Under the pieces are notes generated by a model. It ran no database searches, was not told where the DNA came from, and saw only the letters and a list, made by a program, of their open reading frames with translations. From an uncultured Actinomycetota bacterium (lineage in GTDB: Bacteria > Actinomycetota > Actinomycetes > Actinomycetales > Micrococcaceae), in the NCBI GenBank assembly GCA_963696055.1, contig CAVOIE010000006.1:531431-563430 (forward strand): a DNA stretch of 32,000 bases. The letters run 5' to 3'. Positions 7,654-29,194 of the stretch are shown here, one piece after another. Every line of letters begins with the position of its first letter. Position 1 is the first letter of the stretch. A program made the position numbers and the translations under genes.

Positions 7654-8648
7654 CGGCGGCCTCCAGCCAAGAAGGCCGCGGCGGTGGCCGCCAGCATGCC
7701 GGCCGCAGCGAGTCCCGCCCGCTTGAACATCCGCGGCAGGTCGGCGGTGGGCACGCGCGGATCCGGCGGCAGACCGTACACCTCGGGCTCATCCAGCAGC
7801 AGGAACACGGAGCCGGTGCCACCGACCCCGTCGCCGTCGTTGGCCCCGTAGAGGCGCGCCTCCGTCAGCCCCTGCGAATGCAGTTCGGCCACCCGCTGTT
7901 TCGCAGCGCCCACCATCTCCTCGCGCTCGCCGTACTTGATCGACGTCGTCGGGCAGGCCTGGGCACAAGCTGGCGTCTGGCCATCAACCATCCGGTCGTA
8001 ACACAGCGTGCATTTCTGGGCGACGCCTACGTTGCGGGTCGGCGCCTGCTCCCCCGGGGTGAAGTCACGTTGTGCCTTCACCCCCGCCGTGCCATCGCTG
8101 CGCCGCTCGATGACGCCGAACGGGCAGCCTGCCACGCAGGTGCCGCACCCGTTGCAGACATCGTCCTGCACCACAACGGTGCCGTGCTCGGTGCGGAACA
8201 GTGCACCGGTCGGGCACACGTCGAGGCACCCGGCGTTGGTGCAGTGTTTGCACACATCGGAGGACATCAGCCACCTGAAATCGGGCGTTTCCGGCGGTGC
8301 CGTATCCGCGGCGGACGGCTCCCCCGCGGCGCCGGGGTTTCCCGGCGGCCCGATGCCAGGCATGCCGAGGCTGACGAGCGCCCGTCCGGAGTCGCGTGCC
8401 TTTTCGATGTGCTCGCGGTCCTGCTCGATGAAGGCGACATGGCGCCACGTGTCGGCTCCCAAGGCGCCGGTGTTGTCGTAGGAGGACTCGAGCAGTTCGT
8501 ACTCCGAGTCGTGGGGGTTGCGGTTCCATTCCTTGCAGGCCACTTCACACGCTTTGCAGCCGATGCAAATCGAGGTGTCGGTGAAAAAGCCCTTGCGCGG
8601 GTGTCCCGTGTGCGGAATGTGGCCGGGAGCTTCGGTCAGCTTGTTCAT
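7650..8648 (-). CDS. Formate dehydrogenase iron-sulfur (beta, FdnH/HybA-like) subunit, 4x[4Fe-4S] ferredoxin-type
   Basis: Four ferredoxin-type Cys clusters are present: CIGCKACEVACKEWN, CKHCTNAGCLDVCP, CNGCGTCVAGCP and CTLCYDR...CAQACP. There is a C-terminal hydrophobic anchor (AGLAAAGMLAATAAAFLAGG). The ATG at 8648 immediately follows the TAA (8649-8651) of the alpha gene, with AGGGAAGG upstream. Confidence 0.87.
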   Translation of the reverse strand: MNKLTEAPGHIPHTGHPRKGFFTDTSICIGCKACEVACKEWNRNPHDSEYELLESSYDNTGALGADTWRHVAFIEQDREHIEKARDSGRALVSLGMPGIGPPGNPGAAGEPSAADTAPPETPDFRWLMSSDVCKHCTNAGCLDVCPTGALFRTEHGTVVVQDDVCNGCGTCVAGCPFGVIERRSDGTAGVKAQRDFTPGEQAPTRNVGVAQKCTLCYDRMVDGQTPACAQACPTTSIKYGEREEMVGAAKQRVAELHSQGLTEARLYGANDGDGVGGTGSVFLLLDEPEVYGLPPDPRVPTADLPRMFKRAGLAAAGMLAATAAAFLAGGRR

Positions 8649-16672: not shown

Positions 16673-17795
16673 TGAACTGCTGATAGTCGGCGGATTGGCG
16701 GTTCTGCTCGGTCCAGAGGATCCGATCGAGGTCCGCGTTGGTGGGCCGGTAGTTGTAGAGCATCCGGTAGTAGTTGGTCATCTTGCGGCGCAACCTGGAC
16801 TGCTCCTGCGGGAAGGCGATATCGCTCAGCCAGTGCCACATGAGCGGCGATTCCTGACCCGGTGGATCCCAGCGGTAGCCGCCGAGCGGTACCTTGTAGA
16901 CCCGCCGGGACCGGACCGCGGCGATGTTCTTCCAGACCGGATCGTCGTACACGTCCTGCGGCATGGCGGCGTCGAAATTACCCAGCAGGATGACCTCCGG
17001 ATCCCAGTTCAGGACCTGCTCCACGTCCAGTCCCACCATCCCGGTCCCAGGCAGCGCCTCCGGTCCGGTGGCCGGATTGCTGCCGCCTACCAGCTTGATG
17101 TAGAAGTCGTTGTAGGTCTTGGCGGCCGCCGCCTTGAGCCCGCCCACAAATCGGTTGAAGTACAGGATGCTCGGCCCGGGCCCGCTACGTCCGGCCGCGA
17201 GTTCCTTGACCTCCGAGAGTTCTCGGTCACTGTGGCCCTTGATCTCCGTGGCGCGTTCCGGCTTCCCGAGCATGGCGGAAAACATGGCGATCCACGCGTC
17301 CACGTCCTCCTGCTTGCCGTTGTTGACCAGGCCGATCACTTTCAGCCCGGCGTTTTCCAAGGGGGCCACCAGCTGGGCATCGCTCCATTGGATGACGACG
17401 TCGGGGTTCAGCGCCCGGATGCTCTCGACGTTGGGCGTGAAATCCTGTGTGGCGATCTCGTGCGGAAGCTCCAGTGCCCGGGGGAAGATGGTGCCGAGGA
17501 TGCCGTCGCGCATCGCCACCCATGATGCGTTGTGCATAGCGGCCAGGTGATCTGCGCTGCCGTCCACTGCCACCAGCAGCGAGGCCGCCGGCATGGGAAT
17601 GGTCACGACACTGGTGACCGGCCGGTCGAAGGTGATGGTCCGGCCCTGCTGATCACGGAAGCTGATGCCTGCAGGCGTGCTGCCTTCGGTCTGTGACGGC
17701 GCGGTGCGGCCGGCACTGCATCCGGCCAGTAAGGCGACGCCGCCGCCCAGCCCGATGACCTGCAGGATTGACCGGCGGTTGAACTCAGCGGTCAT
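16662..17795 (-). CDS. Periplasmic-binding-protein type 2 (FecB/BtuF-like) substrate-binding lipoprotein with Tat-type signal
   Basis: ORF 16662..17837(-) trimmed to the ATG at 17795, which has GGGAG 8 nt upstream. The leader MTAEFNRRSILQVIGLGGGVALLAGCSAG combines a twin-arginine motif with a lipobox. The body resembles siderophore/cobalamin-type SBPs. It is the first gene of an SBP-permease-ATPase operon. Confidence 0.85.
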   Translation of the reverse strand: MTAEFNRRSILQVIGLGGGVALLAGCSAGRTAPSQTEGSTPAGISFRDQQGRTITFDRPVTSVVTIPMPAASLLVAVDGSADHLAAMHNASWVAMRDGILGTIFPRALELPHEIATQDFTPNVESIRALNPDVVIQWSDAQLVAPLENAGLKVIGLVNNGKQEDVDAWIAMFSAMLGKPERATEIKGHSDRELSEVKELAAGRSGPGPSILYFNRFVGGLKAAAAKTYNDFYIKLVGGSNPATGPEALPGTGMVGLDVEQVLNWDPEVILLGNFDAAMPQDVYDDPVWKNIAAVRSRRVYKVPLGGYRWDPPGQESPLMWHWLSDIAFPQEQSRLRRKMTNYYRMLYNYRPTNADLDRILWTEQNRQSADYQQFNAG

Positions 17796-17989
17796 GGGCA
17801 CGCTCCCGGATGCTGTGGCATTGCGCCGTTGCGGCATCAGGGACGCTGAGGCCGCGGTGCTTCAGTGTAAACAGCATTGTCCTCGGGGTCAGGCCTGTCA
17901 ACGACTCGGCGAGAGCCGCCCATGTTCCTTGCCGGTGTCTCATGCCCGGTGCTACCGTCGAAGCACGCATTAGCGGAAGGTGGCACATC

Positions 17990-18763
17990 ATGGTCATCGA
18001 CGGCGCCCAGTTGTTTGTCCGTTATGCCTACCCGCCCAACGCCCGCGGCAGCTGCGGGCCGCTGGACAGCGACGCGCTGCTCCACTACGGACAGACCGGA
18101 GTCACCGACAAGGGGCTCCGCGAACTCGCCAAGGGTTTCGCCGGCGCCTACCCGTATCTGGAGCTGATCGCCGGGGCGACCGGCATCCCGGATCCGTTGG
18201 ACCATCGCGTCGTGGAGGCCTACTGGGTGGGCAATAGCCTGTTGGATTCCGTGGGGATCCGGAACATGGGCAATTCCATGGAGGACCGCTTCCGCGCTCG
18301 GACCGGCCAGCAGTTCCCGCACCTCGTGGAAGGGGTCCTGGCAGGCGGCGTTCCGCACCACAGCTTCCATGTCTTCGAGATTTACCCCTGGCTGGGCCTA
18401 CTGCGCGATGAGCGGCGGTACGCCACGGCGCTCACCGTGCTCGACCGCTGCAGGATCCGCTGGGGACAGGTCCGCGCCATTGCCGGTGACGAGGCAGTGG
18501 TCAGCTCGCCCCAGCTGGTCTGGGACGGCACGTTTCTCTCCGTCGGGGAGCCGGTTGTCGAGACCGCGAAATTCGCCGTGGCGGGAACGGGGTTCGTGGA
18601 GAAGCTCAACGTCGGGGATGTGGTCTCTCTCCATTGGGACTGGGTGTGTGATGTCCTGACCCCGCATGCTCTGCGGCAGCTGCAGCACTTCACCGCCCGG
18701 CACCTGGAGATCGCCAACAAGGGCGTCGAGCATCGCGGCGCGGCGATCGCGCTGGAACGTTAG
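17990..18763 (+). CDS. Conserved hypothetical protein (257 aa), convergent with the hydrogenase operon
   Basis: ORF 17810..18763(+) trimmed to the ATG at 17990, which is preceded by GGAAGGTGG. The sequence MVIDGAQLFVRYAYPPNARGSCGP...VEAYWVGNSLLD...HHSFHVFEIYPW... has coding-like composition and no motif I can assign. From memory, similar proteins are annotated as a DUF next to actinobacterial hyp/hhy genes. This is unverified. Confidence 0.7.
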   Translation: MVIDGAQLFVRYAYPPNARGSCGPLDSDALLHYGQTGVTDKGLRELAKGFAGAYPYLELIAGATGIPDPLDHRVVEAYWVGNSLLDSVGIRNMGNSMEDRFRARTGQQFPHLVEGVLAGGVPHHSFHVFEIYPWLGLLRDERRYATALTVLDRCRIRWGQVRAIAGDEAVVSSPQLVWDGTFLSVGEPVVETAKFAVAGTGFVEKLNVGDVVSLHWDWVCDVLTPHALRQLQHFTARHLEIANKGVEHRGAAIALER

Positions 18764-18830: not shown

Positions 18831-19187
18831 CTACGGTGCCTGCGGAGCAGCCTCCCCCGATGCCTCGTCGGTGCCGACGTCGGTGGAATCGCGGGTCGTC
18901 GAAGTGCCCGTGGGACGCCCGGACGGCCCCTTGGTCCCGGTGTCCTCCCGGCCAGGCTCCTTGCCGTCCTGCCCGGCCACTTCCTCGCCGCCGCGGGTCA
19001 TGCTCTCGCCGACCCCTTCCGGAGCCATCCTGGCGTCGGCCGGAGTCTCCTCCTGCCCGGGGTGCTCCGGTTCTTTCGCCGGAGGTTCGCTGCCCCAGGC
19101 GCGCGCGGTGCCTTTGTTACCGGTGCCCTCCCCGCCGGTCTCGGGTTCGCGCTGTTCACCGGACACTGACGGTTGTTCCTCGGACAT
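18831..19187 (-). CDS. Small acidic, Gly/Glu/Pro/Thr-rich intrinsically disordered protein (118 aa), last gene of the hydrogenase operon
   Basis: The ATG at 19187 is preceded by a strong GAGGAGG (revcomp of 19191-19197) and lies 47 nt after the hypC stop. The sequence is MSEEQPSVSGEQREPETGGEGTGNKG...DEASGEAAPQAP. It has G/C-rich third positions and no hydrophobic core. The longer ORF-track version (to 19490) overlaps hypC and is rejected. Confidence 0.5.
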   Translation of the reverse strand: MSEEQPSVSGEQREPETGGEGTGNKGTARAWGSEPPAKEPEHPGQEETPADARMAPEGVGESMTRGGEEVAGQDGKEPGREDTGTKGPSGRPTGTSTTRDSTDVGTDEASGEAAPQAP

Positions 19188-19234: not shown

Positions 19235-19492
19235 CTAGGGCAATTCGCCCCCGGATTCCCGCTCTTGCCCCATCAATTCGAGGCCGGTCATCGCCTCCTC
19301 CGCACCCTCTGCGTCCACCCGCTGCAAGGCGAAGCCCATATGGATCAGGATCCAGCTGCCGGCTTCCGGCGGGCCGTCGTCGAGCAGGCCGATGTTGATT
19401 TTCCGCTCCGCCCCGGCAACATCCACGAGGGCGAGCTGGCCGCCGTAACCCTCGACGAGCTCGATGACCCGCCCCGGTATTCCCAGGCACAT
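19235..19492 (-). CDS. hypC: Hydrogenase maturation chaperone HypC/HybG/HupF
   Basis: 85 aa with the invariant N-terminus MCLGIPGRV (Cys2) and a small OB-fold-sized protein. AAGGAGG lies upstream and overlaps the TAA of the protease gene. Confidence 0.93.
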   Translation of the reverse strand: MCLGIPGRVIELVEGYGGQLALVDVAGAERKINIGLLDDGPPEAGSWILIHMGFALQRVDAEGAEEAMTGLELMGQERESGGELP

Positions 19493-19504: not shown

Positions 19505-20047
19505 TTAGCTGCGATGGGAAAGGTTTTCTTCCAAGAGGGTGACGACGGCGGCGATCGCCTTCGGGACGGCGGCCGCCACCGCCGGAGAGAGCCCGATGCC
19601 TTCCGTCGTATCGGCCGGCACGCAGCCAACGACGTAGGTTGGCGGCAGTGTGCCGCCCAGAGAACGTAGCCGGTTCAACACCGCGGCCGGATCCATGCCA
19701 TGTGGATCCAACGGCCCTGCGTCCGCGAGGTCTTCGGCACCGACGCGCAGGATCCGGATGCTGCCCGGTTCTGCATCGGGCGCAGCGGGAGGGACGGTGT
19801 CGACCAGGACCAGCGCTTCCACGCCGGCCAGCAGGTCGTACGCCAGATGCATTCCCCGGATTCCATAGTCGATTACTTGCAGTCCGGGTCGTTGGCCGGC
19901 CCCGGCTGCGGTCAGTCGCTGTGCCACTTCCGGGCCGAAGCCGTCATCGCGCAGGAACATGTTGCCGACGCCGGCCACCAAGGTACGTCCGGTGAAATCC
20001 GCGGCCGTATCACCGGCGGCTGTGCGTGGTTGGTTCCTGGTGTTCAC
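19505..20047 (-). CDS. [NiFe]-hydrogenase maturation endopeptidase (HybD/HupD/HyaD family)
   Basis: TLVAGVGNMFLRDDGFGPEVAQRL...DYGIRGMHLAYDLL...LVLVDTV...DPHGMDP matches the GxGNxxxxDDGxG and Dx(H) motifs of the family. The start is assigned to the GTG at 20047, which overlaps the stop of the upstream micro-ORF (GTGA). The ORF-track extension to 20389 is Arg/Pro-rich and overlaps the upstream gene. Confidence 0.85.
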   Translation of the reverse strand: MNTRNQPRTAAGDTAADFTGRTLVAGVGNMFLRDDGFGPEVAQRLTAAGAGQRPGLQVIDYGIRGMHLAYDLLAGVEALVLVDTVPPAAPDAEPGSIRILRVGAEDLADAGPLDPHGMDPAAVLNRLRSLGGTLPPTYVVGCVPADTTEGIGLSPAVAAAVPKAIAAVVTLLEENLSHRS

Positions 20048-20163
20048 ATCCGGCTCAGCTTCAAGTAGCGCCGGATGTCCGGGAGCGACCGCAGCCCGGC
20101 GTAGAGGAGGCCGAGCGCGACGGCGGAAAGCATGCCGGTGGCCACCATGCCTACTGCTCTCAT
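20044..20163 (-). CDS. 39-aa single-TM micro-protein (not in the ORF track), translationally coupled on both sides
   Basis: Hand translation of the minus strand gives MRAVGMVATGMLSAVALGLLYAGLRSLPDIRRYLKLSRM*. Its ATG (20161-20163) overlaps the TGA of the 482-aa gene (ATGA). Its TGA (20044-20046) overlaps the GTG of the protease (GTGA). It has a hydrophobic helix followed by a basic tail. It fills an otherwise unexplained 113-nt gap in a tightly packed operon. Confidence 0.55.
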   Translation of the reverse strand: MRAVGMVATGMLSAVALGLLYAGLRSLPDIRRYLKLSRM

Positions 20164-21608
20164 GATTGGTTTTCCCTTCCGTGCTGGGTTTCGGACTGTC
20201 CGCCGGACGGGGCAGGATCAAGAGGCTCCAGTTCGTCCGGCGCGTAGTAGAAGGATCGGCCGTAGCCCTCGTGCAGGTCGGCCGCGGGGTCCTCTTCGAA
20301 GACCAGGCCGACGTGCGTGCTGCCGTCGACGTCGAAATGGACGCTGGTGACCCTTGCAGCCTGGCCCGCGAAAAAGAGGTCCTGGGCATCTGCCCGCCGG
20401 CCCGGTTTCACACGTACCCGGCTGCCGCGGGCCACCGTAACGTTTCCGATCAGCACGGCGTCCTCGTCGGGATGCACGCTGGCGTCCGCCGCGGGATCCC
20501 ACCACGGAAGACTCTCGGATCCGCTGCTGCCCCCGGATCCAGCCGCCGGCTCTTCGGTGAGCGTTGGGAAGGCCGGGGCGTGGGGATCGCGCAGGACGCC
20601 GTGCAGCCGCTGCAGTTCCTCGGGTGACATCGCGGCGCAGCGATCGATCACCGCCGCCGCCCGCGGATCGGTGGCCCGTGCCTCCGCCTTTTCCTCTTCC
20701 GTCAGGGTCAGCACCCGGAGGGTGAGGATCTCGTCGATCTCCGTCGAGTCGTACAGCTCCACCGAGCTTTCCGGGGCGACGGCGGGATGGTCGTAGAGGA
20801 TGATGGGCGAGATGAGCAGCACGTCGGTCTGGCCTTCGGGTCCGGCGAGCACCGGCCAGCACCGGTGCTGGGTGCAGGACCGCGCCGCGGCTGCTGCCGC
20901 TTCCGGCGGCTCGAGCAGGGAGAGGAAATCCCCGTCCTGCAGGGTCAGCAGAGCGTGGGTTCCGATGAACGACAAGGCGATGGCGTCCTGCTTGTCTGCG
21001 GCTCCGGGCTCGTCCGCAGCGGGACCGAGGTTCTTCGCGGTGACATGCAGCCGCATCACTCCGTCGTCGTGTGGCGTCGCGGTCAGCCTGACCTCTCCGC
21101 GGAGCCGGCGACGGCGGCGCACCAGCCGCCCCGCAATCTGCCCTACGCTGTCGATGAGCAACTCGCTGTCCCGGCCGGCCTGCACCTCGACCGGCAGCGC
21201 CAGCCCGTCCCCCTGCCCGCCGGCCAGGTCAGCCAGCGCAAACGGACCCAGGGCGATCTCCTGCTCCACGGCTTCGTCCCAGGTCAGCCACCGGTCGGCA
21301 CCCAGCGTGAGCTGCCCGACGGACCTGAACGCCCCGTCGTCGCACTTTTCCTCCACGGTCCGGGTCTGCAGCTGGAGGAAGCGCAGGTGCACCTCCAGCG
21401 CTGCGTTCGGGCCAGCGGTGAGCAGGCAGTCCGCGGACAGGTAGGGTTCCTCACCGAGCCCCGCCGCCGCGGCGCCGGGCGGGCCGAGGATACCGAACTG
21501 CCAGCGTGCCTGGTTCTTCCGGGACGACGCCCGGTACGGGTAGAGCAGGTACCCCTCGTAGAGGACAGCATCGGCGACGGCGCGGGCCAGGCTCAGTCCC
21601 ATGTTCAT
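20160..21608 (-). CDS. Conserved hypothetical protein, 482 aa, hydrogenase-operon encoded
   Basis: Long ORF with coding-like composition (MNMGLSLARAVADAVLYEGYLLYPYRASSRKNQARWQFGILGP...). The ATG at 21608 overlaps the upstream stop (ATGA), and its stop overlaps the downstream micro-ORF start. I can see no recognisable catalytic or cofactor motif. Confidence 0.8.
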   Translation of the reverse strand: MNMGLSLARAVADAVLYEGYLLYPYRASSRKNQARWQFGILGPPGAAAAGLGEEPYLSADCLLTAGPNAALEVHLRFLQLQTRTVEEKCDDGAFRSVGQLTLGADRWLTWDEAVEQEIALGPFALADLAGGQGDGLALPVEVQAGRDSELLIDSVGQIAGRLVRRRRRLRGEVRLTATPHDDGVMRLHVTAKNLGPAADEPGAADKQDAIALSFIGTHALLTLQDGDFLSLLEPPEAAAAAARSCTQHRCWPVLAGPEGQTDVLLISPIILYDHPAVAPESSVELYDSTEIDEILTLRVLTLTEEEKAEARATDPRAAAVIDRCAAMSPEELQRLHGVLRDPHAPAFPTLTEEPAAGSGGSSGSESLPWWDPAADASVHPDEDAVLIGNVTVARGSRVRVKPGRRADAQDLFFAGQAARVTSVHFDVDGSTHVGLVFEEDPAADLHEGYGRSFYYAPDELEPLDPAPSGGQSETQHGRENQS

Positions 21609-22261
21609 TGCGGCGGCTCACCCACAACGTTTGCGGCGGCACCGGCCAGCAGCGCCTCCATGGTTGCCTCCCAAGAGGTGAGCCCCCGGACCGCCTTGAA
21701 GCGGGCCAACGATGCGAGCACCTCGCGGTCCAGCCGGAGCCAGCCGGTGTTGGGGAAGTGCAGGTCCATGAGCCGGCGCCACGCCTCCACCGGCAGCTGA
21801 TAGGAAGCCTCGAGGTCCCACGGCACCTGTTCCACCGTGAACCCGGTCTGGCCTCTGGTGAAGACGGTGCCGGAGAACAGCAGTTCCAGCGGGACCGTGC
21901 CCTCGTGCAGGGCGTTCAGGTACTTGGCCGCCGCCACGTCGAAATCGAAGGTACAGGGTAGCGGCAGATCCACCTCGGTGCTGCCGGTAAACCCCTGGAC
22001 CAGGGCGCTGCACTGCAGCCAGAGGAAGGACTTCAGCGTCGAGGGCCAGCGGCCGCGCTCACCGAAAAGATCCAGCAGCCCCGGTTCCTCGTCCGGGCCA
22101 TAGCCGCGCCGCTGCGGCAGGATGCGGACCTGGCAGCGCAGCGCGATCGCATGGACGACGGCGGCGCTGGACTCGGTCACGCGCAGCCGGGCAGTCAGCT
22201 GGGGAGCCGCCGCGTAGGGCTCGGGCTGGATGTCGAGGACAGTGAAGGACAAGTCGGTCAC
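21605..22261 (-). CDS. Conserved hypothetical protein, 218 aa, hydrogenase-operon encoded
   Basis: ORF 21605..22387(-) trimmed to the GTG at 22261, which overlaps the upstream stop (GTGA at 22258-22261). The sequence is VTDLSFTVLDIQPEPYAAAPQLTARLRVTESS...FSGTVFTRGQTGFTVEQVPWDLEASYQLPVEAWRRLMD. No motif could be assigned. Confidence 0.72.
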   Translation of the reverse strand: MTDLSFTVLDIQPEPYAAAPQLTARLRVTESSAAVVHAIALRCQVRILPQRRGYGPDEEPGLLDLFGERGRWPSTLKSFLWLQCSALVQGFTGSTEVDLPLPCTFDFDVAAAKYLNALHEGTVPLELLFSGTVFTRGQTGFTVEQVPWDLEASYQLPVEAWRRLMDLHFPNTGWLRLDREVLASLARFKAVRGLTSWEATMEALLAGAAANVVGEPPQ

Positions 22262-22914
22262 GGCACATCCTCCGGCCCGGCGCTGCTCCGGTCGTCCTCG
22301 CGCACCGGCCGGCACCGGCCCTGGACCTGGTTGAAGAACATCCGGAGTTGCTCGCGGGACTGCTGTCCGCCGTCGAACCCGCGCCACACACGGCGCAGCT
22401 GGCCCACCAGTTCGTAGCAGGCGTCCACCGGGACCAAGTAGCAGTCCGCCTGGGCCCGTTCGGGTCCCGGACCACGGATCAGCAGCGCCTCGGTATCAGC
22501 GGCGGCAACGGACAGGCTCGGATTGCGCGCCACCACCGCTCCCCACGCCTCCAGCGAAAGTTCGGATTCGGTGGCTCCCGCGGGGCCCGGATAGAAGGCG
22601 ACCGTGCGCTCCAACTTGGAACTGTGGAAGAAGAAGGCCAGGCCTACCGGAATCTCGAGTTCCTCCCACTGGCCCGGGCCGAGCTCGAAGTCGGGGAAGG
22701 AGAGGTAGCGGTCCGGGACGGCGCGGTAGCGGAGCCAGGCGGAGGCGTCCGTGAAGAGCAGGTAGCACGGCCGGCAGGTGCAGAGCATGCCGCGGCTTTC
22801 CACATCGACCACGTGCTGGTGTTGCTCCGCGATGGGCTCGCCGCACATCTCGCAGCGCGCACCGGTCTCGGTCCGCTTGGTGGCCGCGATCTTGCGCAGC
22901 AGCGCAATATCCAT
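22258..22914 (-). CDS. Conserved hypothetical Cys-motif protein, 218 aa (CxxC ... CxCxxC), hydrogenase-operon encoded
   Basis: MDIALLRKIAATKRTETGARCEMCGEPIAEQHQHVVDVESRGMLCTCRPCYLLF... carries five clustered cysteines resembling a zinc-ribbon/rubredoxin-like metal site. The ATG at 22914 lies 1 nt after the TGA of the preceding gene (22916-22918). Confidence 0.8.
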   Translation of the reverse strand: MDIALLRKIAATKRTETGARCEMCGEPIAEQHQHVVDVESRGMLCTCRPCYLLFTDASAWLRYRAVPDRYLSFPDFELGPGQWEELEIPVGLAFFFHSSKLERTVAFYPGPAGATESELSLEAWGAVVARNPSLSVAAADTEALLIRGPGPERAQADCYLVPVDACYELVGQLRRVWRGFDGGQQSREQLRMFFNQVQGRCRPVREDDRSSAGPEDVP

Positions 22915-22915
22915 C

Positions 22916-23851
22916 TCAGCCTCCGTGCCCGGCGGACACCGGGACGGCCACGCACATCACGCCGCCACGGCTGAGCAGGGGCAGCGGATCCAGATGCATG
23001 GCCTTGTCCTCCAGACAGGCACCGGCCTGCCGCACGTCGAAGTGGCTGCGGCAGGACAGGCAACGCAACAGGCCGCCGCCGGCCGGTGCCGCGAGTGCCC
23101 GCTGCAGCGTCGCGCCTTCCAGCGAGCGGGTGCAGCGCGGGCAGTAGTCACGGTAGGCATACACGTCCTGCCCGGTCCGGCAGGCCAGGATGGAATAGCC
23201 GCCGCCGACCAAGAAGCCCGCGACTTCCCCGGGTTCCAGCTCGGCGAGCTGGGGCAGCGGCTCCCACGAGCCTGTTGACTGGTCCCCGGAGCCATCGGGC
23301 TCCCTGTTCAGCCGGACCAGCAGCGCGTCCACGGGTATCACGGCCGGCGAGGCGGCGGCCCTTTCGGCCTCGACAACCTCGATGGCCGCCACTTCCGGGG
23401 CCGCTGTTTCAATCGCTTCCTCCACCGCGTACTTGAGGGTAACGGACGACGACGGGCACCCCTGGCAGGTGCCCAACAAGCGCAGCCGCACCACGCCGTC
23501 GTCGTTGATTTCCAGCAGTTCCACGTCGCCACCGTGCGAGCCAAGGTAGGGGCGGACGCTGTCCAGCGCGGCGGCAACCCTAGTCTGCAGGTCCTGCGGG
23601 TGCAGCCCGTGGATGAGCAGCACGGCGGACACCAGCTCGTCCGCGGTCAGTGCCTGCATCGTGGCGGGATCCAGCACGCCGCGGTCCTTGAGGATTTCCA
23701 GCAGCCGTTCCAGTCCCGCTCCATACAGATCGGCCACCTCGCGGACCAGATCTTCCGCGCGTCCCCGGGCGACGGCGCCGCCGGCCCCGAGCGCGTCCAG
23801 CAGCGTGCCGATGCGGTCACCGATCTGGCGTGGCTGATCCCCGGCTGGCAT
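22916..23851 (-). CDS. hhyE: NifU-like / Rieske-like fusion iron-sulfur protein (HhyE-type putative electron-transfer partner of group 1h hydrogenase)
   Basis: The central NifU C-terminal-type domain reads VRPYLGSHGGDVELLEINDDGVVRLRLLGTCQGCPSSSVTLKYAVEEAI. The C-terminal Rieske-like segment has paired Cys motifs (ACRTGQDVYAYRDYCPRC ... LRCLSCRSHF). It starts 6 nt after the hhyL stop. In mycobacteria, the equivalent gene beside hhyL is known as HhyE. Confidence 0.78.
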   Translation of the reverse strand: MPAGDQPRQIGDRIGTLLDALGAGGAVARGRAEDLVREVADLYGAGLERLLEILKDRGVLDPATMQALTADELVSAVLLIHGLHPQDLQTRVAAALDSVRPYLGSHGGDVELLEINDDGVVRLRLLGTCQGCPSSSVTLKYAVEEAIETAAPEVAAIEVVEAERAAASPAVIPVDALLVRLNREPDGSGDQSTGSWEPLPQLAELEPGEVAGFLVGGGYSILACRTGQDVYAYRDYCPRCTRSLEGATLQRALAAPAGGGLLRCLSCRSHFDVRQAGACLEDKAMHLDPLPLLSRGGVMCVAVPVSAGHGG

Positions 23852-23857
23852 GGCAGT

Positions 23858-25651
23858 TCACTCGCCGGTCATCGTCTGGGTCGGAGAGTGCAGCTTGTCC
23901 AGGGTCTGCCCCTTGCCCAGGTACATGTGGACGCCGCACGGCAGGCAGGGGTCGAAGCTGCGCACCGTGCGCATGATGTCGATCCCCTTGAAATGCTCGC
24001 GGTCGTTCTCCTCGAAGATGGGCTGTCCCTGGACCGCGTCCTCATACGGCCCCGAGATGCCCTGGGAATCCGTCGGGCTAGCGTTCCACGGGGTCGGCGG
24101 GTACGGGTGGTAGTTGGCAATCTTGCCGTCGCGGATCACCATGTGGTGCGACAGCACGCCGCGCACGGCCTCGGTGAAGCCGCAGCTGAAGGCCTCGTCG
24201 GGGACCTCGAAGGTTTCCCAGGTCTTGGTCCGTCCGGCCCGTATCTCTTCGAGCGCCTGCTCGGCAAAGTGCAGCGCGGCCGCGGCGGCGTAGGCCTGGA
24301 AGTACGTGCGGGCCCGGTTGCGCTCCAGCGTGTTGCTCCATTGCGGGGTGTGCCATTCGAAGGAGACCGGCCCCTTCAGCGCGGTCTTGGGCAGGTTGAT
24401 CTGCACGCTGTGGCCGGTGGCCTTGATGTAGCCGATGTCGACCAGCCCTGCCAGCGCCGTCGACCAGAGCCGGGCCAGCGGGCCGCCGCCGGTGTCCAGG
24501 GCGAGGTTGTCCGTGCCGTCGAACCAGCGCGGCGACATCACCCAGCTGTACTTCTCCGCCAAATCGCGCTTCTGCGGCTTCGGGTTGGTGTGCTGGTTCC
24601 ACGGATGACGGCGGTCCACCGGATTGCCCAGCGGATCCCGCGTCACGAACATTTCCTGGTCCTCCCAGTCCTCGTAGTACGAGGAACCGAGCATGATTCG
24701 TATCCCGAGGTTGATCCGCACCAGGTCGGTGGTCACCAGTTTTCCGTCCACCACGACGCCGGGAGTCACGAACATCTTCCGGCCCCAGTCCGTCATGTCC
24801 TTGTACTCGAAATTGCAGAACTCCGGATCCTGGAAGGCACCCCAGCAGCCGAGCAGCGTGCGCCGCAGGCCCACCTGCTCGTAGCCCGGAAGGGCCTCGT
24901 AGAAGAAGTCGAAGAGGTCGTCGTGCATGGGCACAACCTTCTTCATGAACTCGACGTAGCGCATCAGCCGGGTGATGTAGTCGGTCATGAGTTGGATGGT
25001 CGCCACCGTGCCCACGCCACCCGGGTACAGCGTAGACGGGTGGACGTGGCGTCCCTCCATCAGGCAGAACATCTCACGCGTGAGGCGGCTGACCTGCAAA
25101 GCCTCCCGGTAAAACTCGCCGGTGAACGGGTTCAGCGAGCGCATGATGTCCGCGATCGTGCGGTAGCCGTGGTCGGCCTCGTGCGGGGCGCGCGTGTTCT
25201 CCGCCTTCGCCAGTACGCCGGGGTTGGTTTCGGAGACCATCTTCTCGCAGTAGTCCACGCCGACGAGGTTCTCCTGGAAGATGTTGTGATCGAACATGTA
25301 CTCGGCCGCTTCGCCGAGGTTCACGATCCACTCGCCCAGATTCGGCGGCTTCACGCCGTAGGCCATGTTCTGGGCATAGCAGGAGCAGGTGGCATGGTTG
25401 TCGCCGCAGATGCCGCAGATCCGGCTGGTGATGAAGTGGGCGTCGCGGGGATCCTTTCCCTTCATGAACAAGGAGTAGCCGCGGAAGATCGAGGACGTGC
25501 TGCGGCACTCAACAACCTGGTTGTTCTCGAAGTCGATCTTGGTGTAGATGCCGAGGCTGCCGACGATCCGGGTGATGGGGTCCCACGCCATCTCCACAAG
25601 GTTGCTGCCGCCTGTGCTGCTCTGGGAAGGCGTTGGAATTGTGGAGGTCAT
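23858..25651 (-). CDS. hhyL: [NiFe]-hydrogenase large subunit, group 1h/5 (high-affinity, Hhy-type)
   Basis: 597 aa. The N-terminal NiFe-ligand motif is HFITSRICGICGDNHATCS. The C-terminal motif is SFDPCLPCGVH, followed by a 22-aa tail (MYLGKGQTLDKLHSPTQTMTGE) that would be removed by the endopeptidase. The TSRICGICGDNH form of L1 is characteristic of the actinobacterial group 1h/5 enzymes. Confidence 0.95.
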   Translation of the reverse strand: MTSTIPTPSQSSTGGSNLVEMAWDPITRIVGSLGIYTKIDFENNQVVECRSTSSIFRGYSLFMKGKDPRDAHFITSRICGICGDNHATCSCYAQNMAYGVKPPNLGEWIVNLGEAAEYMFDHNIFQENLVGVDYCEKMVSETNPGVLAKAENTRAPHEADHGYRTIADIMRSLNPFTGEFYREALQVSRLTREMFCLMEGRHVHPSTLYPGGVGTVATIQLMTDYITRLMRYVEFMKKVVPMHDDLFDFFYEALPGYEQVGLRRTLLGCWGAFQDPEFCNFEYKDMTDWGRKMFVTPGVVVDGKLVTTDLVRINLGIRIMLGSSYYEDWEDQEMFVTRDPLGNPVDRRHPWNQHTNPKPQKRDLAEKYSWVMSPRWFDGTDNLALDTGGGPLARLWSTALAGLVDIGYIKATGHSVQINLPKTALKGPVSFEWHTPQWSNTLERNRARTYFQAYAAAAALHFAEQALEEIRAGRTKTWETFEVPDEAFSCGFTEAVRGVLSHHMVIRDGKIANYHPYPPTPWNASPTDSQGISGPYEDAVQGQPIFEENDREHFKGIDIMRTVRSFDPCLPCGVHMYLGKGQTLDKLHSPTQTMTGE

Positions 25652-25684: not shown

Positions 25685-26743
25685 TTACCAGGTGCGCCGG
25701 GCACCGGTCAGAAGTTCACGTCCGGGCCGGCGCCACTTGGGTTCCTTGTCCAGCGTGTTGGCCGTGATGCCGCGCAACGCCTTGATGGCCGCACCGTAGG
25801 GGCGGACGGCATTGGTGGACAGCTTGCCGCCGGGCGGCTCGTCCATGAAAGGCATGAACTTGTCCGGGAATCCCGGCATGGTGCATCCGATGCAGATACC
25901 GCCGACGTTGGGGCAGCCGCCCAGACCATTCATCCATCCGCGTTTGGGGACATTGCACTTGACCACGGGGCCCCAGCAGCCGAGTTTGACGATGCACTTG
26001 GGCGACCCGTATTCGGTGGCGAAATCGGCCTGCTCGTAGTAACCGGCGCGGTCGCAGCCTTCATGGACCGTCTTGCCGAACAGCCAGGTGGGGCGCAGCG
26101 ACTCGTCCAACGGAATCGGCGGCGCCTGTCCGGTCGCTTGGTAGAGCAGATACGTGATGGTCTCCGAGAGGTTGTCCGGCTGGATGGGACAGCCCGGGAC
26201 GCAGACGATCGGAATGCCTGCCTTGGATTTCCAGTCGTACCCCAGATAATCGGGCACACCCATGGCACCGGTCGGATTGCCGGCCATCGCATGGATGCCG
26301 CCGTAGGTGGCGCAGGTACCGGCCGCGATGATCGCGGTGGCTTTCGGCGCCAGCCGGTCCAGCCATTCGCTGGTGGTGATCGGCTGTCCGGTCTCCAGAT
26401 CATTGCCGAAGCCGCACCAGTAGCCGCCCGGTTCATGGAGTTGCTCGTTCGGGATGGAGCCCTCGACCACCAGGACGAACGGCTCCAGTTCGCCGCGGTC
26501 CGCCTTGCGGAACCACTCGAGGAAGTCGTCGGCCCCTTCCTGGGGCCCGCACTCAAAGTCGATCAGCGGCCAGTGCATTGCGATCCTGGGCAAGCCGGGC
26601 AGCGCGCCGAGCGCGATCTCCTCGACGCTGGGCTGGGTGGCCGCCGTCAGCGCGACCGAATCTCCGTCGCAACTGAGCCCCGCGTTGATCCACAGCACGT
26701 GGATGAGGGCTTCTTCGGCCTGTAAGGAAGTTTCGGTAGGCAT
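25685..26743 (-). CDS. hhyS: [NiFe]-hydrogenase small subunit, group 1h/5, no Tat signal
   Basis: ORF 25685..26839(-) trimmed to the ATG at 26743, which is preceded by GGAGG. MPTETSLQAEEALIHVLWINAGLSCDGDSVALT runs straight into the conserved small-subunit core without an RRxF leader, as expected for group 1h. It has multiple Cys ligands (GTCATYGG, CVPGCP, GCDRAGYY, CIVKLGCWGP, CPNVGGICIGCTMP). Confidence 0.93.
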   Translation of the reverse strand: MPTETSLQAEEALIHVLWINAGLSCDGDSVALTAATQPSVEEIALGALPGLPRIAMHWPLIDFECGPQEGADDFLEWFRKADRGELEPFVLVVEGSIPNEQLHEPGGYWCGFGNDLETGQPITTSEWLDRLAPKATAIIAAGTCATYGGIHAMAGNPTGAMGVPDYLGYDWKSKAGIPIVCVPGCPIQPDNLSETITYLLYQATGQAPPIPLDESLRPTWLFGKTVHEGCDRAGYYEQADFATEYGSPKCIVKLGCWGPVVKCNVPKRGWMNGLGGCPNVGGICIGCTMPGFPDKFMPFMDEPPGGKLSTNAVRPYGAAIKALRGITANTLDKEPKWRRPGRELLTGARRTW

Positions 26744-26772
26744 CGGTGCCTCCTTCAGAGCCCTTGAAGGAC

Positions 26773-27627
26773 TCAGTGAGCGTCGGTAGTCAGTGACCCG
26801 GTCAGGGTTTCCGGCTCGGGTGAGTCGCCTTCGAGCCACTCATACCAGCGGGGCAGCCCCTCGCCGGTGGTGGCCGAAACGACCAGGAATTCGGTCCGCG
26901 GATTAATCTGGCGGATGCGCTCCAGGCACGCGTTGGTGTCGAATTCCACGTAGGGCAGCAAGTCCGACTTATTGACGATCACCAAGTCGGCCGCCCTGAA
27001 CATGTGCGGGTACTTCTGGGGTTTATCATCACCTTCCGTCACCGAAATGATCACCACTTTGGCGGCTTCGCCGAGGTCGAAGAGCGCCGGACAGACCAGG
27101 TTGCCGACGTTCTCGATGAACACCGTCGAATCTGTGGCTGGGTCCAGAGCATCGAGTCCTCGGCGGAGCATGTCGGCATCGAGGTGGCAGCCGGCCCCCG
27201 TGTTGATCTGGATGACTGGCCGTCCCAGCGCGCGGATGCGGTCGGCATCCAGCGACGTTTCCTGGTCGCCTTCGATAACGCCTGCCTGCAGCCGGTCGCC
27301 GAGTTCCTGAAGCGTGCGGACCAGCAGCGTGGTCTTGCCGGCGCCGGGCGAGCTCATCACGTTGAGGGCGCGGATGCTCCGGCCCTCCAGCCAGCCGCGG
27401 TTCCGGGCGGCCAACAGGTCGTTTTTGGCGAGCAGATCCTGCTCAAGCACTATGGTTTGCGGGCCGCTGGCGGCATGCCCGTGGTCGTGTCCGTGGTCGT
27501 GCTCGTGTTCATGTGCATGATCATGGGGATGGCTGTGGGGATGTGGATGGTCGTGGCCGGCCGGCGCAATCTCGACGCCGGACACCCGCGTGTTTTCGGC
27601 GTCTCCACAGCCACAGGTAGTGCACAT
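26773..27627 (-). CDS. hypB: Hydrogenase nickel-incorporation GTPase HypB with His-rich tract
   Basis: The N-terminal high-affinity metal motif is MCTTCGCG. A perfect alternating tract HDHPHPHSHPHDHAHEHEHDHGHDHGH follows. It has the P-loop MSSPGAGKTTLL and a G3E-family GTPase body. The ATG at 27627 abuts the hypA TAG (27628-27630). Confidence 0.95.
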   Translation of the reverse strand: MCTTCGCGDAENTRVSGVEIAPAGHDHPHPHSHPHDHAHEHEHDHGHDHGHAASGPQTIVLEQDLLAKNDLLAARNRGWLEGRSIRALNVMSSPGAGKTTLLVRTLQELGDRLQAGVIEGDQETSLDADRIRALGRPVIQINTGAGCHLDADMLRRGLDALDPATDSTVFIENVGNLVCPALFDLGEAAKVVIISVTEGDDKPQKYPHMFRAADLVIVNKSDLLPYVEFDTNACLERIRQINPRTEFLVVSATTGEGLPRWYEWLEGDSPEPETLTGSLTTDAH

Positions 27628-27957
27628 CTATGCCACCTCCACCGAGGTCACCATCAGTTCACGGCCGCCGAGGACTTCCACGTCGGCGCTGCCGCAGGGG
27701 CACAACAGAATCAGGTCTTCCAGCACGAAATCCCTCTTGCAGTTGCGGCACCGGCCCAGACCGCGGGGCTCATCGATAGTGAGCCGGGCCCCGGCCAGCG
27801 CTGTACCGGCGGAGGCGACTTCAAAGCAGAAGCGCATGGCCTCCGGCAGCACACCTGAGAGCGCCCCAATGCGGAGATTCACGAGGGTAACCTGCCGATC
27901 ACCTGTTCGGTCCAGGACGGCGTCGATAAGGCTTTCCGTAAGTGAGAGCTCATGCAT
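27628..27957 (-). CDS. hypA: Hydrogenase nickel metallochaperone HypA
   Basis: ORF trimmed to the ATG at 27957, which is preceded by GAGGTGG. It has the MHELSL N-terminal nickel-binding motif (MHE). The zinc site is CRNCKRDF...CPCGS (CxxC...CxC). The protein is 109 aa. Confidence 0.9.
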   Translation of the reverse strand: MHELSLTESLIDAVLDRTGDRQVTLVNLRIGALSGVLPEAMRFCFEVASAGTALAGARLTIDEPRGLGRCRNCKRDFVLEDLILLCPCGSADVEVLGGRELMVTSVEVA

Positions 27958-27979
27958 GGTCTGCCACCTCGTGATCTCC

Positions 27980-28020
27980 AAGATAGGCGCGTGGGGGACA
28001 ATGCGCAACCATCCGCATTG
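27980..28020 (-). promoter_or_regulatory. Candidate internal promoter (TTGCGC-17 nt-TATCTT) with overlapping inverted repeat CAATGCG-N8-CGCATTG upstream of hypA
   Basis: On the minus strand, -35 TTGCGC is the revcomp of 28003-28008. The spacer is 17 nt. The -10 TATCTT is the revcomp of 27980-27985 and lies about 22 nt upstream of the hypA ATG. The plus strand at 27999-28020 reads caatgcg-caaccatc-cgcattg, with 7-bp perfect arms overlapping the -35. This is a by-eye pattern match only. Confidence 0.3.
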
Positions 28021-28099
28021 ACGCCCGAAAGAAGCCCGCCCAGGTGCCATCGGAGAATCGCTGCGTCAGGCGCTCAGCGCCGCTCCGGGTTGCAGGCAG

Positions 28100-29194
28100 T
28101 CATTCCGGCAGCGAATAGCGGGCCTCGACTTTGCCCAGCTTCCAGTAGGCGACCGCTGCCAGCCACGTTGCCGCAAACAGCCCGCAGATCAGGAAGCCGA
28201 AGTTCTCCAGGTTCACGGAAGCGACCCAGGCAACGGGGCCGCTATCTACCTGCATCCTCTCGGCCAGCAGCCCCAACAGTCCCACTCCTCCGACGAGGAA
28301 AGCCACGATGACGGACGTGCCGGTGACCATGAGGTTGTAGTACACCTTCCGGACCGGGCGCGCGAAGGCCCATTGATAGGCCCGGTTCATGAAGATGCCA
28401 TCGAGTGTGTCAAACAAAGTCATGCCCGCGGTGAACAAGACCGGCAGGACAAGAACCACGTACCAGGGTGCGGTCAGGGCGGCACTGCCGCCGATCACAA
28501 ACAACCCAATCGTCGTCGCCGTATCGAACCCCAACCCGAACAACACACCGATCGGATACATCTTCCAAGGCCGGTCGACCTGTCGGGCCAACGGTGCCAA
28601 CACCCGGTTGAGCAGGCCGCGGTTTTGCAGCAGGTCCTCGATTTCGGCTTCGTTGTATTCGCCGCTCCTGAGCTGGCGGAATACGCGGGCGATCCCGATG
28701 AGCGAATACAGGTTCAGGGTACCGATCAGTAGCAGGAACAGTCCGGAGACGACGACACCCCAAACTCCGGTTATGGAAGCGAGTAACGAATCGCCGTCGG
28801 AAATCTGGTCGGCCAACCTATTCAGCCCCGCAGCCAGCAGAGTGACAGCGACTATCACCACGGTCGAATGCCCCAAGGCGAACCAGAATCCTACGGACAC
28901 GGGACGGCTGCCCTCCCCCACCAGCTTGCGTGTTGTGTTGTCCACCGCCGCAATGTGGTCGGCGTCAAACGCGTGGCGCGCCCCCAGGATGAAAGCCGTA
29001 AACGCCAGTCCGAGGCCGAAAGGCGCCCGGTCGGCCACTTCGTACTGTCCCGGCACTACGACGGCGAAGAACATCCCCCACCCGACGAGCAACAGGAACG
29101 CAATCGCCGAGGCCATGCCCATGATGCTGCGCCGGCTACCTGCCGCGCGTCTTTGGAGGTGACGTTTCACGGTTTCCTGCCACTCTGGCCGCAT
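28100..29194 (-). CDS. HoxN/HupN/NixA-family nickel/cobalt permease (NiCoT)
   Basis: 364-aa polytopic protein with the family signature in TM2 (GARHAFDADHIAAVDNTTRKL) and the GLGFDTATTIG motif. It is the first gene upstream of hypA-hypB-hhySL on the same strand. Confidence 0.92.
   Translation of the reverse strand: MRPEWQETVKRHLQRRAAGSRRSIMGMASAIAFLLLVGWGMFFAVVVPGQYEVADRAPFGLGLAFTAFILGARHAFDADHIAAVDNTTRKLVGEGSRPVSVGFWFALGHSTVVIVAVTLLAAGLNRLADQISDGDSLLASITGVWGVVVSGLFLLLIGTLNLYSLIGIARVFRQLRSGEYNEAEIEDLLQNRGLLNRVLAPLARQVDRPWKMYPIGVLFGLGFDTATTIGLFVIGGSAALTAPWYVVLVLPVLFTAGMTLFDTLDGIFMNRAYQWAFARPVRKVYYNLMVTGTSVIVAFLVGGVGLLGLLAERMQVDSGPVAWVASVNLENFGFLICGLFAATWLAAVAYWKLGKVEARYSLPE

Follow-up and report, generated by a model that had tools for sequence, protein, structure and literature searches.

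A co-inherited five-gene block specific to group 1h [NiFe]-hydrogenase loci and its possible role in enzyme assembly at the membrane

Group 1h [NiFe]-hydrogenases rank among the main biological sinks for atmospheric H2, and the question raised by the locus described here is which genes allow such an enzyme to assemble in air, attach to the membrane and connect to the respiratory chain. We analysed a 32,000-nucleotide stretch of DNA from an uncultured Actinomycetota bacterium (contig CAVOIE010000006.1, positions 531,431 to 563,430; hereafter the window), which has a GC content of ~67% and is Arthrobacter-like, its top protein matches being 92-94% identical to proteins of Arthrobacter sp. The minus strand of the window carries a complete group 1h hydrogenase island, in which five genes lie between the large-subunit gene hhyL and the gene for the HupD-type maturation endopeptidase. 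They encode HhyE (g1), a DUF5947 protein (g2), a DUF6084 protein (g3), a protein of ~480 amino acids (aa; g4) and a DUF6893 peptide (g5), and this set is the obvious candidate for all three tasks. Our results establish that g1-g5 are a dedicated, co-inherited, physically linked and non-catalytic set that is specific to group 1h and includes one membrane peptide. We tentatively favour a role for this set as a membrane-anchored assembly and docking platform for the hydrogenase subunits HhyS and HhyL, over a role as an electron-exit module, which we regard as doubtful.

A dedicated gene set of group 1h hydrogenase loci

The locus is a group 1h (Hhy/AH) [NiFe]-hydrogenase cluster. HhyL carries the group 1h L1 motif TSRICGICGDNH and the L2 motif SFDPCLPCGVH, as defined previously (PMC5364354), and shares 78% identity with Cupriavidus necator HofG, compared with 27% with Escherichia coli HyaB. 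HhyS probably starts at ATG 26746, which gives 353 aa (aligned homologues have 334-359 aa), and its N-terminus (MPTETSLQAEE...) has no twin-arginine motif and no hydrophobic leader, and hence no twin-arginine translocation (Tat) leader. Profile scans found no cytochrome b family among the cluster genes. The initial annotation, which was made from the sequence alone, had placed five open reading frames (ORFs) between hhyL and the endopeptidase gene, with stops and starts touching or overlapping at each junction. The coordinates, on the minus strand, and the flanking genes (checked by motifs, Pfam and TIGR00072) were confirmed, as were all five junction sequences: TGA-g-ATG at 22912-22918, GTGA at 22258-22261, ATGA at 21605-21608, ATGA at 20160-20163 and GTGA at 20044-20047, where the GTG start of hupD overlaps the g5 stop. 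The composition of g1-g5 is of the coding type for this host, with a GC content of 0.81-0.86 at third and ~0.50 at second codon positions. HypA, HypB, HypC and HupD are encoded separately in the window, and g1-g5 matched neither HypA-F nor other curated hydrogenase-maturation families in Pfam and NCBIfam.

We scanned one genome per species with conserved g4 peptides, which yielded 593 confirmed loci, and examined the best 80 of these. The order HypB-HhyS-HhyL-g1-g2-g3-g4-g5-HupD-HypC was invariant in the 80 loci, well beyond what chance would give, and genes were missing only at contig ends. All 80 belonged to Actinomycetota save one bin labelled Sericytochromatia, and the mycobacterial loci had the identical gene order at 50-60% identity. 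In a survey of junctions, for which downstream start sites were estimated, tight junctions were better conserved within the accessory block than at the hhyS-hhyL boundary: g3 and g4 shared a 4-nucleotide overlap in 71/81 loci, and overlaps were found between g2 and g3 in 56/78 and between g4 and g5 in 50/78, compared with a gap of >20 nucleotides between hhyS and hhyL in 57/68. C. necator plasmid pHG1 and Methylocystis keep the block with overlapping junctions, and its place is always between hhyL and hupD, hypC or hypA.

Co-occurrence on plasmids gave the same picture. In an unbiased collection of 72,556 plasmids, group 1h HhyL (at least 73% identity) was found in 13 records. The same 13, and no others, contained g4 and g2, and 11 of the 13 also contained g3; plasmids with other [NiFe] hydrogenases lacked g2, g3 and g4 alike. 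Homologues were not commonly found away from group 1h loci in either the plasmids or the 80 loci. The possibility that g1-g5 are unrelated passengers or chance ORFs between hhyL and hupD draws only on g4's missing annotation, and it is already refuted, with a vanishingly small probability left to it, by the invariant order in the 80 loci, the retention of the block across two phyla, the exclusive plasmid co-occurrence with 1h HhyL, the large and conserved families and the coding-type composition. The initial annotation had likewise argued against passengers. The two plasmid records without g3 are two copies of the Streptantibioticus cattleyicolor megaplasmid. This replicon (pSCAT; L083, 556000-574000) is rearranged, with g4 between hypB and hhyS and no detectable DUF6084, and a 60-aa ORF after its DUF5947 gene encodes a DUF6893-like helix with an IREIRIWRM tail that scores below the Pfam threshold.

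Gene fusions bear on whether the products meet. A DUF6084::g4 fusion of 765 aa forms a cluster of 28 sequences, most of them full length, collected from JGI, NCBI, ENA and Logan; the HhyE N-domain is joined to DUF6084 in a 334-aa fusion with 5 members; and a 375-aa HhyE::DUF5947 fusion, known from just the two contigs read, lies directly before the 765-aa fusion gene. One lineage thus has the arrangement HhyS-HhyL-[HhyE::DUF5947, 375 aa]-[DUF6084::g4, 765 aa]-protease-DUF6893, and another has HhyS-HhyL-[HhyE-N::DUF6084]-g4-protease-HypA and lacks both DUF5947 and a NifU domain across 19 kb. Fusions of g1 to g2, g1 to g3 and g3 to g4 are classical evidence that the products work in contact, and at the sequence level they speak for a single physical complex; we consider a dedicated complex likely. 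The multi-subunit accessory complex put forward by the initial annotation is therefore supported as an association, by the group-1h-specific set and by the fusions, and its fixed stoichiometry is not shown. The latter had been read from the overlaps, which indicate co-transcription and probably coupled translation only; 4-base overlaps are common in high-GC operons. Two kinds of apparent fusion were set aside. Long DUF6084 matches (P0368, P0373, P0311, P0343 and P0308) are read-throughs in the wrong reading frame, with a high content of Arg, Pro and Ala, and a single g2::g3 fusion (P0272) was discounted as an assembly indel because hhyL and a DUF6390 gene are also split on that contig.

The gene set is already in the literature, so that the undescribed system suspected in the initial annotation is not one: the window holds the orthologous Arthrobacter copy, whose function is uncharacterised, and 3/5 proteins belong to Pfam DUF families. 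The genes g1-g4 correspond to PHG066-069 of the C. necator AH cluster, reported as four ORFs of unknown function (PMC4377017), and to HhyE together with the hhaABC 'conserved hypothetical proteins' of Thermomicrobium roseum (PMC6776052) and Acidobacteria (PMC5900883). HhyE, MSMEG_2717 and their neighbours have been described in Mycobacterium smegmatis (PMC6883350), and the cluster's conservation in Rhodococcus equi, M. smegmatis and C. necator has been pointed out (PMC13332983). As the initial annotation held, only HhyE has been linked experimentally to activity: it is the sole member of the set tested genetically, in M. smegmatis only, where its deletion phenocopies loss of the hydrogenase structural subunits (PMC6883350). 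The genes themselves are thus no surprise to specialists; the fusions, the dispensable Fe-S motifs of HhyE and the overlooked transmembrane peptide, described below, sharpen the question of what they do.

Comparison with the two best-described clusters shows how closely the window follows them. In M. smegmatis, HhyE (MSMEG_2718) and MSMEG_2717-2715, or hhaABC, have the same position after hhyL and the same HhyE motif layout, and the window genes are an orthologous set with no visible functional difference. The AH (hofKG) cluster of C. necator H16 pHG1 has the same order and overlapping junctions, with a ~476-aa protein before the protease, and identities to the window of 40% (NifU-like region), 41% (DUF5947; 40.9%, the pHG1 gene being PHG067), 43% (DUF6084) and 37% (g4, over 94% of its length). 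The DUF6084-g4-protease position is the same in the 80 loci. The pHG1 cluster differs in that PHG066 has 192 aa and a single Cys and lacks the C-terminal 4-Cys domain, and in that DUF6893 follows the protease, whereas it precedes the protease in the window. RefSeq names the group 1h small subunits of C. necator (L081:4208-5263) and Methylocystis (L082:4305-5384) 'hydrogenase expression protein HypE', a propagated misannotation that has also been remarked for R. equi (PMC13332983).

Domains and conserved residues of the five proteins

HhyE comprises a helical N-domain (residues ~1-90, with an LLIHGLHP motif), an Nfu/NifU-type domain with C129-x2-C132 (PF01106, E 4e-23) and a C-terminal domain with a weak resemblance to Rieske folds, which contains two CxxC motifs (C237/C240 and C264/C267). 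This layout, a NifU CxxC plus two C-terminal CxxC, agrees with the published one (PMC6883350). The Nfu domain is a member of a known Fe-S carrier family on the basis of Pfam, NCBIfam and Protein Data Bank (PDB) matches, PDB Nfu homologues covering residues 90-164, and C129 and C132 are invariant in 73 aligned loci (actinobacterial, apart from S. cattleyicolor). Of the NifU/Rieske fusion named in the initial annotation, the NifU part stands. The Rieske part does not: Rieske profiles stayed below threshold (Rieske 13.4 bits, cutoff 20.3; Rieske_2 14 bits, cutoff 27; E 0.05-0.07), the Rieske ligand motif CxH...CxxH is not in HhyE, whose C-terminal ligands are four Cys, and the domain is absent from the HhyE of other lineages. 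A profile of the N-domain matched TAL effectors and designed helical repeats in the PDB, with E down to 8e-10; we rejected homology because each repeat's independent E exceeded 6, as expected of summed compositional similarity between helical hairpins.

The Fe-S motifs of HhyE are missing in proteobacterial and some metagenomic lineages. C. necator PHG066 has no CxxC at all, Methylocystis HhyE likewise has none, and several metagenomic HhyE proteins have a Cys-less Nfu-like domain or consist of the helical N-domain alone. The part that is kept universally is the N-domain with its L-x-H-x-L motif. Both popular readings, HhyE as an Fe-S electron acceptor and HhyE as an Fe-S donor, are weakened by these variants as general explanations, and attention moves to DUF5947 and the scaffold proteins. 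The universal core of the set would, on the alignments, be the HhyE N-domain, DUF6084 and the ~480-aa protein, and not the HhyE Fe-S motifs.

The DUF5947 protein matches its Pfam profile almost end to end (profile positions 1-176 of 177; Table 1) and is the orthologue of C. necator PHG067. Its N-terminal knuckle region, C-x2-C-x7-H-x-H-x10-C-x-C-x2-C, is complemented by C166, and C21, C24, H32, H34, C45, C47, C50 and C166 are invariant in 78 loci and in the sequences compared between Actinomycetota and Pseudomonadota. This Cys6His2 set, kept wherever the gene is present, is predicted to be a two-site or cluster-type metal-ligand set and appears to be the only one among g1-g5 that is conserved across phyla. 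PDB searches with the single sequence and with the g2 profile gave nothing significant. A comparison of HhyS from lineages with and without DUF5947 revealed no informative difference. We found no paper on DUF5947 or DUF6893, and DUF6084 is mentioned only incidentally in the literature.

The DUF6084 family is large, with 1793 clusters at 50% identity in a profile search of 1.84 billion representative proteins. A longer alternative ORF starts at GTG 22387 (260 aa); alignment of the DUF6084 profile from residue 1 onwards and homologue lengths of 213-218 aa support the 218-aa start. The AlphaFold2 (AF2) model (predicted local distance difference test score, pLDDT, 80) shows an Ig-like/FnIII-type beta-sandwich followed by C-terminal helices, and Foldseek matched it to ApaG (1xq4), GH3 FnIII domains, a Kir Ig domain, TMEM106B, Spo0M and ASF1, which on this model look like adaptor- or chaperone-type sandwiches and not enzymes. 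DUF6084 contains no universally conserved metal-ligand set, a PDB search with its single sequence returned nothing significant, and a paralogous relationship between g3 and g4 was rejected (profile-profile comparison probability 1%).

Likeness to chaperone or adaptor sandwiches would also suit a set that protects, repairs or regulates Hhy, through stabilisation or storage in dormant, air-exposed cells, reactivation of oxidised enzyme or control of the oligomeric state, in place of assembling it or transferring its electrons. Hhy is a persistence-phase enzyme (10.1101/769216), and functional 1h enzymes of Methylacidiphilum, in which hhyE is not detectable, suggest an auxiliary role. We nevertheless consider protection improbable: the HhyE deletion phenotype is stronger than would be expected of a protective factor (PMC6883350), and Pfam and NCBIfam found no domain typical of redox repair in the cluster proteins.

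The g4 protein was the one product left unmatched when each protein was searched with profiles, as the initial annotation had advised; NifU, DUF5947, DUF6084 and DUF6893 were matched in the others. Neither Pfam nor NCBIfam assigns g4 to a family, even when 8 diverse members are included, and it has at least 7994 homologues; all 120 named ones among the matches listed are called 'hypothetical'. Its invariant parts are an N-terminal motif, YEGYxLYPYRxxxxKNxxRWxFG, and a segment SPIILYDHP...TEIDEILTLR...ATDPRA that precedes a variable linker; the invariant segments lie at residues 14-43 and 265-317. The AF2 model (pLDDT 72) has a confident beta-rich core (~40-270) and an SH3-like C-terminal domain (~380-465), which in Foldseek resembles PetP (7r0w_V, template modelling (TM) score 0.77), the nitrile hydratase beta C-terminal domain and BAH. 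When g4 is modelled in isolation its most invariant segments have the lowest confidence, as expected of segments that fold on a partner, and these segments probably bind partners; a shallow alignment is an alternative cause. No Cys is universally conserved in g4, and PDB searches with the single sequence and the g4 profile gave nothing significant. Several candidate assignments were discarded. The Cys pair C245/C250 as a metal site is confined to Actinomycetota and lost in other lineages; a Pfam match of 8 diverse sequences to a phage tail-assembly chaperone was sub-threshold (E 0.009); DrmA, the top whole-model Foldseek match (E 7e-6), superposes with a TM score of only 0.2 and a root-mean-square deviation (rmsd) of 20 A; and matches to the type III secretion system and herpesvirus gB are long-strand artefacts.

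The 39-aa ORF represents a genuine gene: DUF6893 scores above the Pfam cutoff (Table 1) and the profile matches in 83/91 sequences searched, C. necator pHG1 included. The peptide has a hydrophobic helix (~4-24) and a basic C-terminal tail ending in the motif P-D-x-x-R-Y-x5-M. Among HhyS, HhyL and g1-g5 it is the sole product with a 19-residue hydropathy above 1.6 (1.83), and its predicted orientation is N-out/C-in. The helix varies in sequence, whereas the tail is net positive and has PDxxRY and the final Met unchanged throughout, so that a cytoplasmic tail binding a partner is predicted. In C. necator pHG1 we identified an unannotated 33-aa DUF6893 ORF, MKGFLKYLVLPALVVALLANIKDIRRYIRIRSM (38.9 bits; L081:10999-11100, NC_005241.1 ~66753-66854), between the protease gene and hypF; DUF6893 also follows the protease in two metagenomic lineages. 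This peptide, overlooked in the pHG1 annotation, is a concrete candidate membrane anchor.

Assembly platform or electron exit

In the model that we tentatively favour, the g1-g5 proteins would form one complex on the cytoplasmic side of the membrane, anchored through the invariant basic C-terminal tail of the single-pass DUF6893 peptide, and HhyS/HhyL would be assembled and docked on this platform. Its scaffold or chaperone core would consist of DUF6084, the ~480-aa protein and the HhyE N-domain. DUF5947, with its Cys6His2 set, would supply or hold metal or Fe-S centres during enzyme maturation under air, a role that in Actinomycetota might be shared by the Nfu and 4-Cys domains of HhyE. The platform would act around HupD cleavage and leave the finished enzyme attached to the membrane. 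The predicted folds are non-catalytic, and we take the products to be adaptor-type proteins.

Several observations point to assembly. The block is always adjacent to hupD, hypC or hypA, HhyE's Nfu domain comes from a family of cluster carriers, and the C. necator enzyme is described as cytoplasmic, with two subunit genes (PMC4377017). The HhyE homologue in the group 2a hydrogenase Huc is HucE, which has a genuine Rieske motif (CxH...CxxC) where HhyE has two CxxC. HucE is likewise needed for activity (PMC6883350), yet it is not among the three subunits of purified Huc. Consistent with a role in assembly, the HucE/HhyE genetic study is cited in a 2023 review under additional proteins of assembly and maturation. 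For the membrane link, Hhy of M. smegmatis occurs in the membrane fraction only, resists 5% cholate and has no transmembrane segment (10.1101/769216), and g5 is the only transmembrane product, with an invariant tail. Cholate releases Huc, in contrast to Hhy, from the membrane (10.1101/769216).

Huc also provides the closest analogy for a scaffold, and the slot of the block in the operon provides one for an electron-transfer partner. The membrane and quinone connection of Huc is provided by HucM, a non-catalytic scaffold, and we propose a comparable role for g3, g4 and g5. Structures of Huc have been solved; we found no sequence relationship between g2, g3, g4 or the HhyE N-domain and solved chains, in a PDB copy in which the presence of HucM was unconfirmed. 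In group 1d operons the cytochrome b gene lies between the large-subunit gene and hupD, and g1-g5 occupy this slot. Cytochrome b (HoxZ/HyaC) and the anchor helix of the group 1d small subunit address the same problem, membrane attachment and electron exit; the window cluster differs in having no multi-helix haem protein, its sole hydrophobic helix being that of the 39-aa peptide, which contains no His.

The second explanation starts from this slot: g1-g5 would be permanent subunits that replace cytochrome b, with DUF6893 as the tether and the DUF5947 metal centre, together with the HhyE clusters in lineages that have them, passing electrons from the distal cluster to menaquinone. We regard it as doubtful. 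The strong membrane association of Hhy is unexplained (10.1101/769216), and a transmembrane peptide with a conserved, predicted cytoplasmic tail would suit a tether; DUF6893, however, is not universal. Against an electron path, neither g3 nor g4 keeps cofactor ligands in all lineages, the HhyE of Pseudomonadota is without Fe-S ligands, and the sole universal metal site, that of DUF5947, is missing in the L089 lineage. The C-terminal domain of g4 resembles PetP, a peripheral subunit of cytochrome b6f, and superposes on it with a TM score of 0.65-0.77 (PetP-normalised) and an rmsd of 2.5-4.4 A; the likeness is at the fold level only (E 0.04-0.05, 16-18% identity) and covers ~75 of the 482 g4 residues. 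The C. necator enzyme has reportedly been purified and crystallised as HofK/HofG only, which counts against electron exit, as does its description as a cytoplasmic enzyme with two subunit genes. PHG067/MSMEG_2717 has already been proposed as the electron acceptor, and HhyE is reported, as cited in the same paper, to co-migrate with HhySL on native gels (PMC6883350). On the other side, Hhy activity on native gels is a low-molecular-weight species (10.1101/769216), and purified Huc does not contain HucE. In T. roseum, the operon that contains hhaABC is the structural one, separate from the maturation operon (PMC6776052), which favours permanent subunits.

The fullest form of this explanation is a new hydrogenase membrane module, in which a 33-39-residue DUF6893 peptide and a beta-sandwich/SH3 scaffold, formed by DUF6084, the ~480-aa protein and the HhyE N-domain, replace cytochrome b, hold HhySL on the membrane and pass electrons to menaquinone via the Cys6His2 centre of DUF5947. 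We consider such a module unlikely; if real, it would account for the resistance of Hhy's membrane binding to cholate and reveal the physiological electron acceptor that has long been sought.

A number of points weigh against the assembly platform as well. Published experiments reach HhyE only and none concerns g2-g5, and the reported co-migration of HhyE with HhySL is more in keeping with a stable subunit than with a factor acting transiently in assembly. A maturation factor has no obvious need of a transmembrane peptide, and DUF6893 was not detected in Methylocystis, L088 and L089 among the 91 sequences searched. The DUF5947 gene is absent across 19 kb of the locus in one lineage (L089/L090), and without a NifU CxxC in the C. 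necator, Methylocystis and metagenomic proteins, Fe-S donation by HhyE cannot, on these sequences, be a universal role. The AF2 models of g4 and g3 are of moderate confidence. Finally, Methylacidiphilum has a working 1h enzyme (PMC5364354), and hhyE is not detectable by BLAST in Methylacidiphilum strains; the set is thus not indispensable for every 1h enzyme, which speaks against both the platform and electron exit as universal models.

Feature coordinates and neighbouring genes

The members of the hydrogenase island are listed in Table 1.

Table 1. Members of the group 1h hydrogenase island, with positions in the window
Feature	Position	Strand	Evidence or remark
NicO	28100-29194	-	island member
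HypA	27628-28050	-	island member
HypB	26773-27627	-	island member
HhyS small subunit	25685-26746	-	Pfam Oxidored_q6 + NiFe_hyd_SSU_C
HhyL group 1h [NiFe]-hydrogenase large subunit	23858-25651	-	Pfam NiFeSe_Hases
g1, HhyE, 311 aa	22916-23851	-	Pfam NifU, E 4e-23
g2, DUF5947 protein, 218 aa	22258-22914	-	Pfam PF19372, 243.6 bits (cutoff 25)
g3, DUF6084 protein, 218 aa	21605-22261	-	Pfam PF19562, 312.2 bits (cutoff 25)
g4, 482-aa protein	20160-21608	-	orthologue of C. necator PHG069; without Pfam family
g5, DUF6893 peptide, 39 aa	20044-20163	-	Pfam PF21833, 41.8 bits (cutoff 24.6)
HupD-type maturation endopeptidase	19505-20047	-	TIGR00072, E 4e-32; Pfam HycI
HypC	19235-19492	-	Pfam HupF_HypC, E 2e-20

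Downstream of the island, a DUF6390 gene on the plus strand (17810-18763, E 2e-88) is convergent with the hhy cluster. In 62/80 loci a homologue is found no more than 10 kb from the cluster, and in L091 one directly follows hypC; DUF6390 may be a further uncharacterised member of the island. A siderophore-type ATP-binding cassette importer (Peripla_BP_2, FecCD and ABC_tran; 14827-17837, minus strand) adjoins the island and may serve metal supply. Such an importer also neighbours 13/80 loci (Micrococcaceae, Cryobacterium and Aeromicrobium), plus L091, and the linkage is thus lineage-restricted. Just downstream of hypC lies an acidic low-complexity ORF of ~118 aa, MSEEQPSVSGEQREPETGG... (~18831-19187, minus strand), which is kept in five close Arthrobacter loci only and has no Pfam match.

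Elsewhere in the window, the minus strand encodes a formate-dehydrogenase-N-type molybdopterin subunit (8649-11962) with an in-frame TGA at 11396-11398 in the context LENQARI*HSATVP, the selenocysteine position of FdnG/FdoG-type enzymes. A perfect hairpin, GGTTCCC-AGTTT-GGGAACC (11366-11384), begins ~11 nucleotides past the TGA and looks like a selenocysteine insertion sequence (SECIS) element. The reading frame breaks near 9650, with the C-terminal Molydop_binding domain (ORF 8649-9416) in another frame, pointing to a frameshift, a pseudogene or an assembly error. The genes for a 4Fe-4S subunit (7650-8648) and an NrfD-like subunit (6571-7653) follow.

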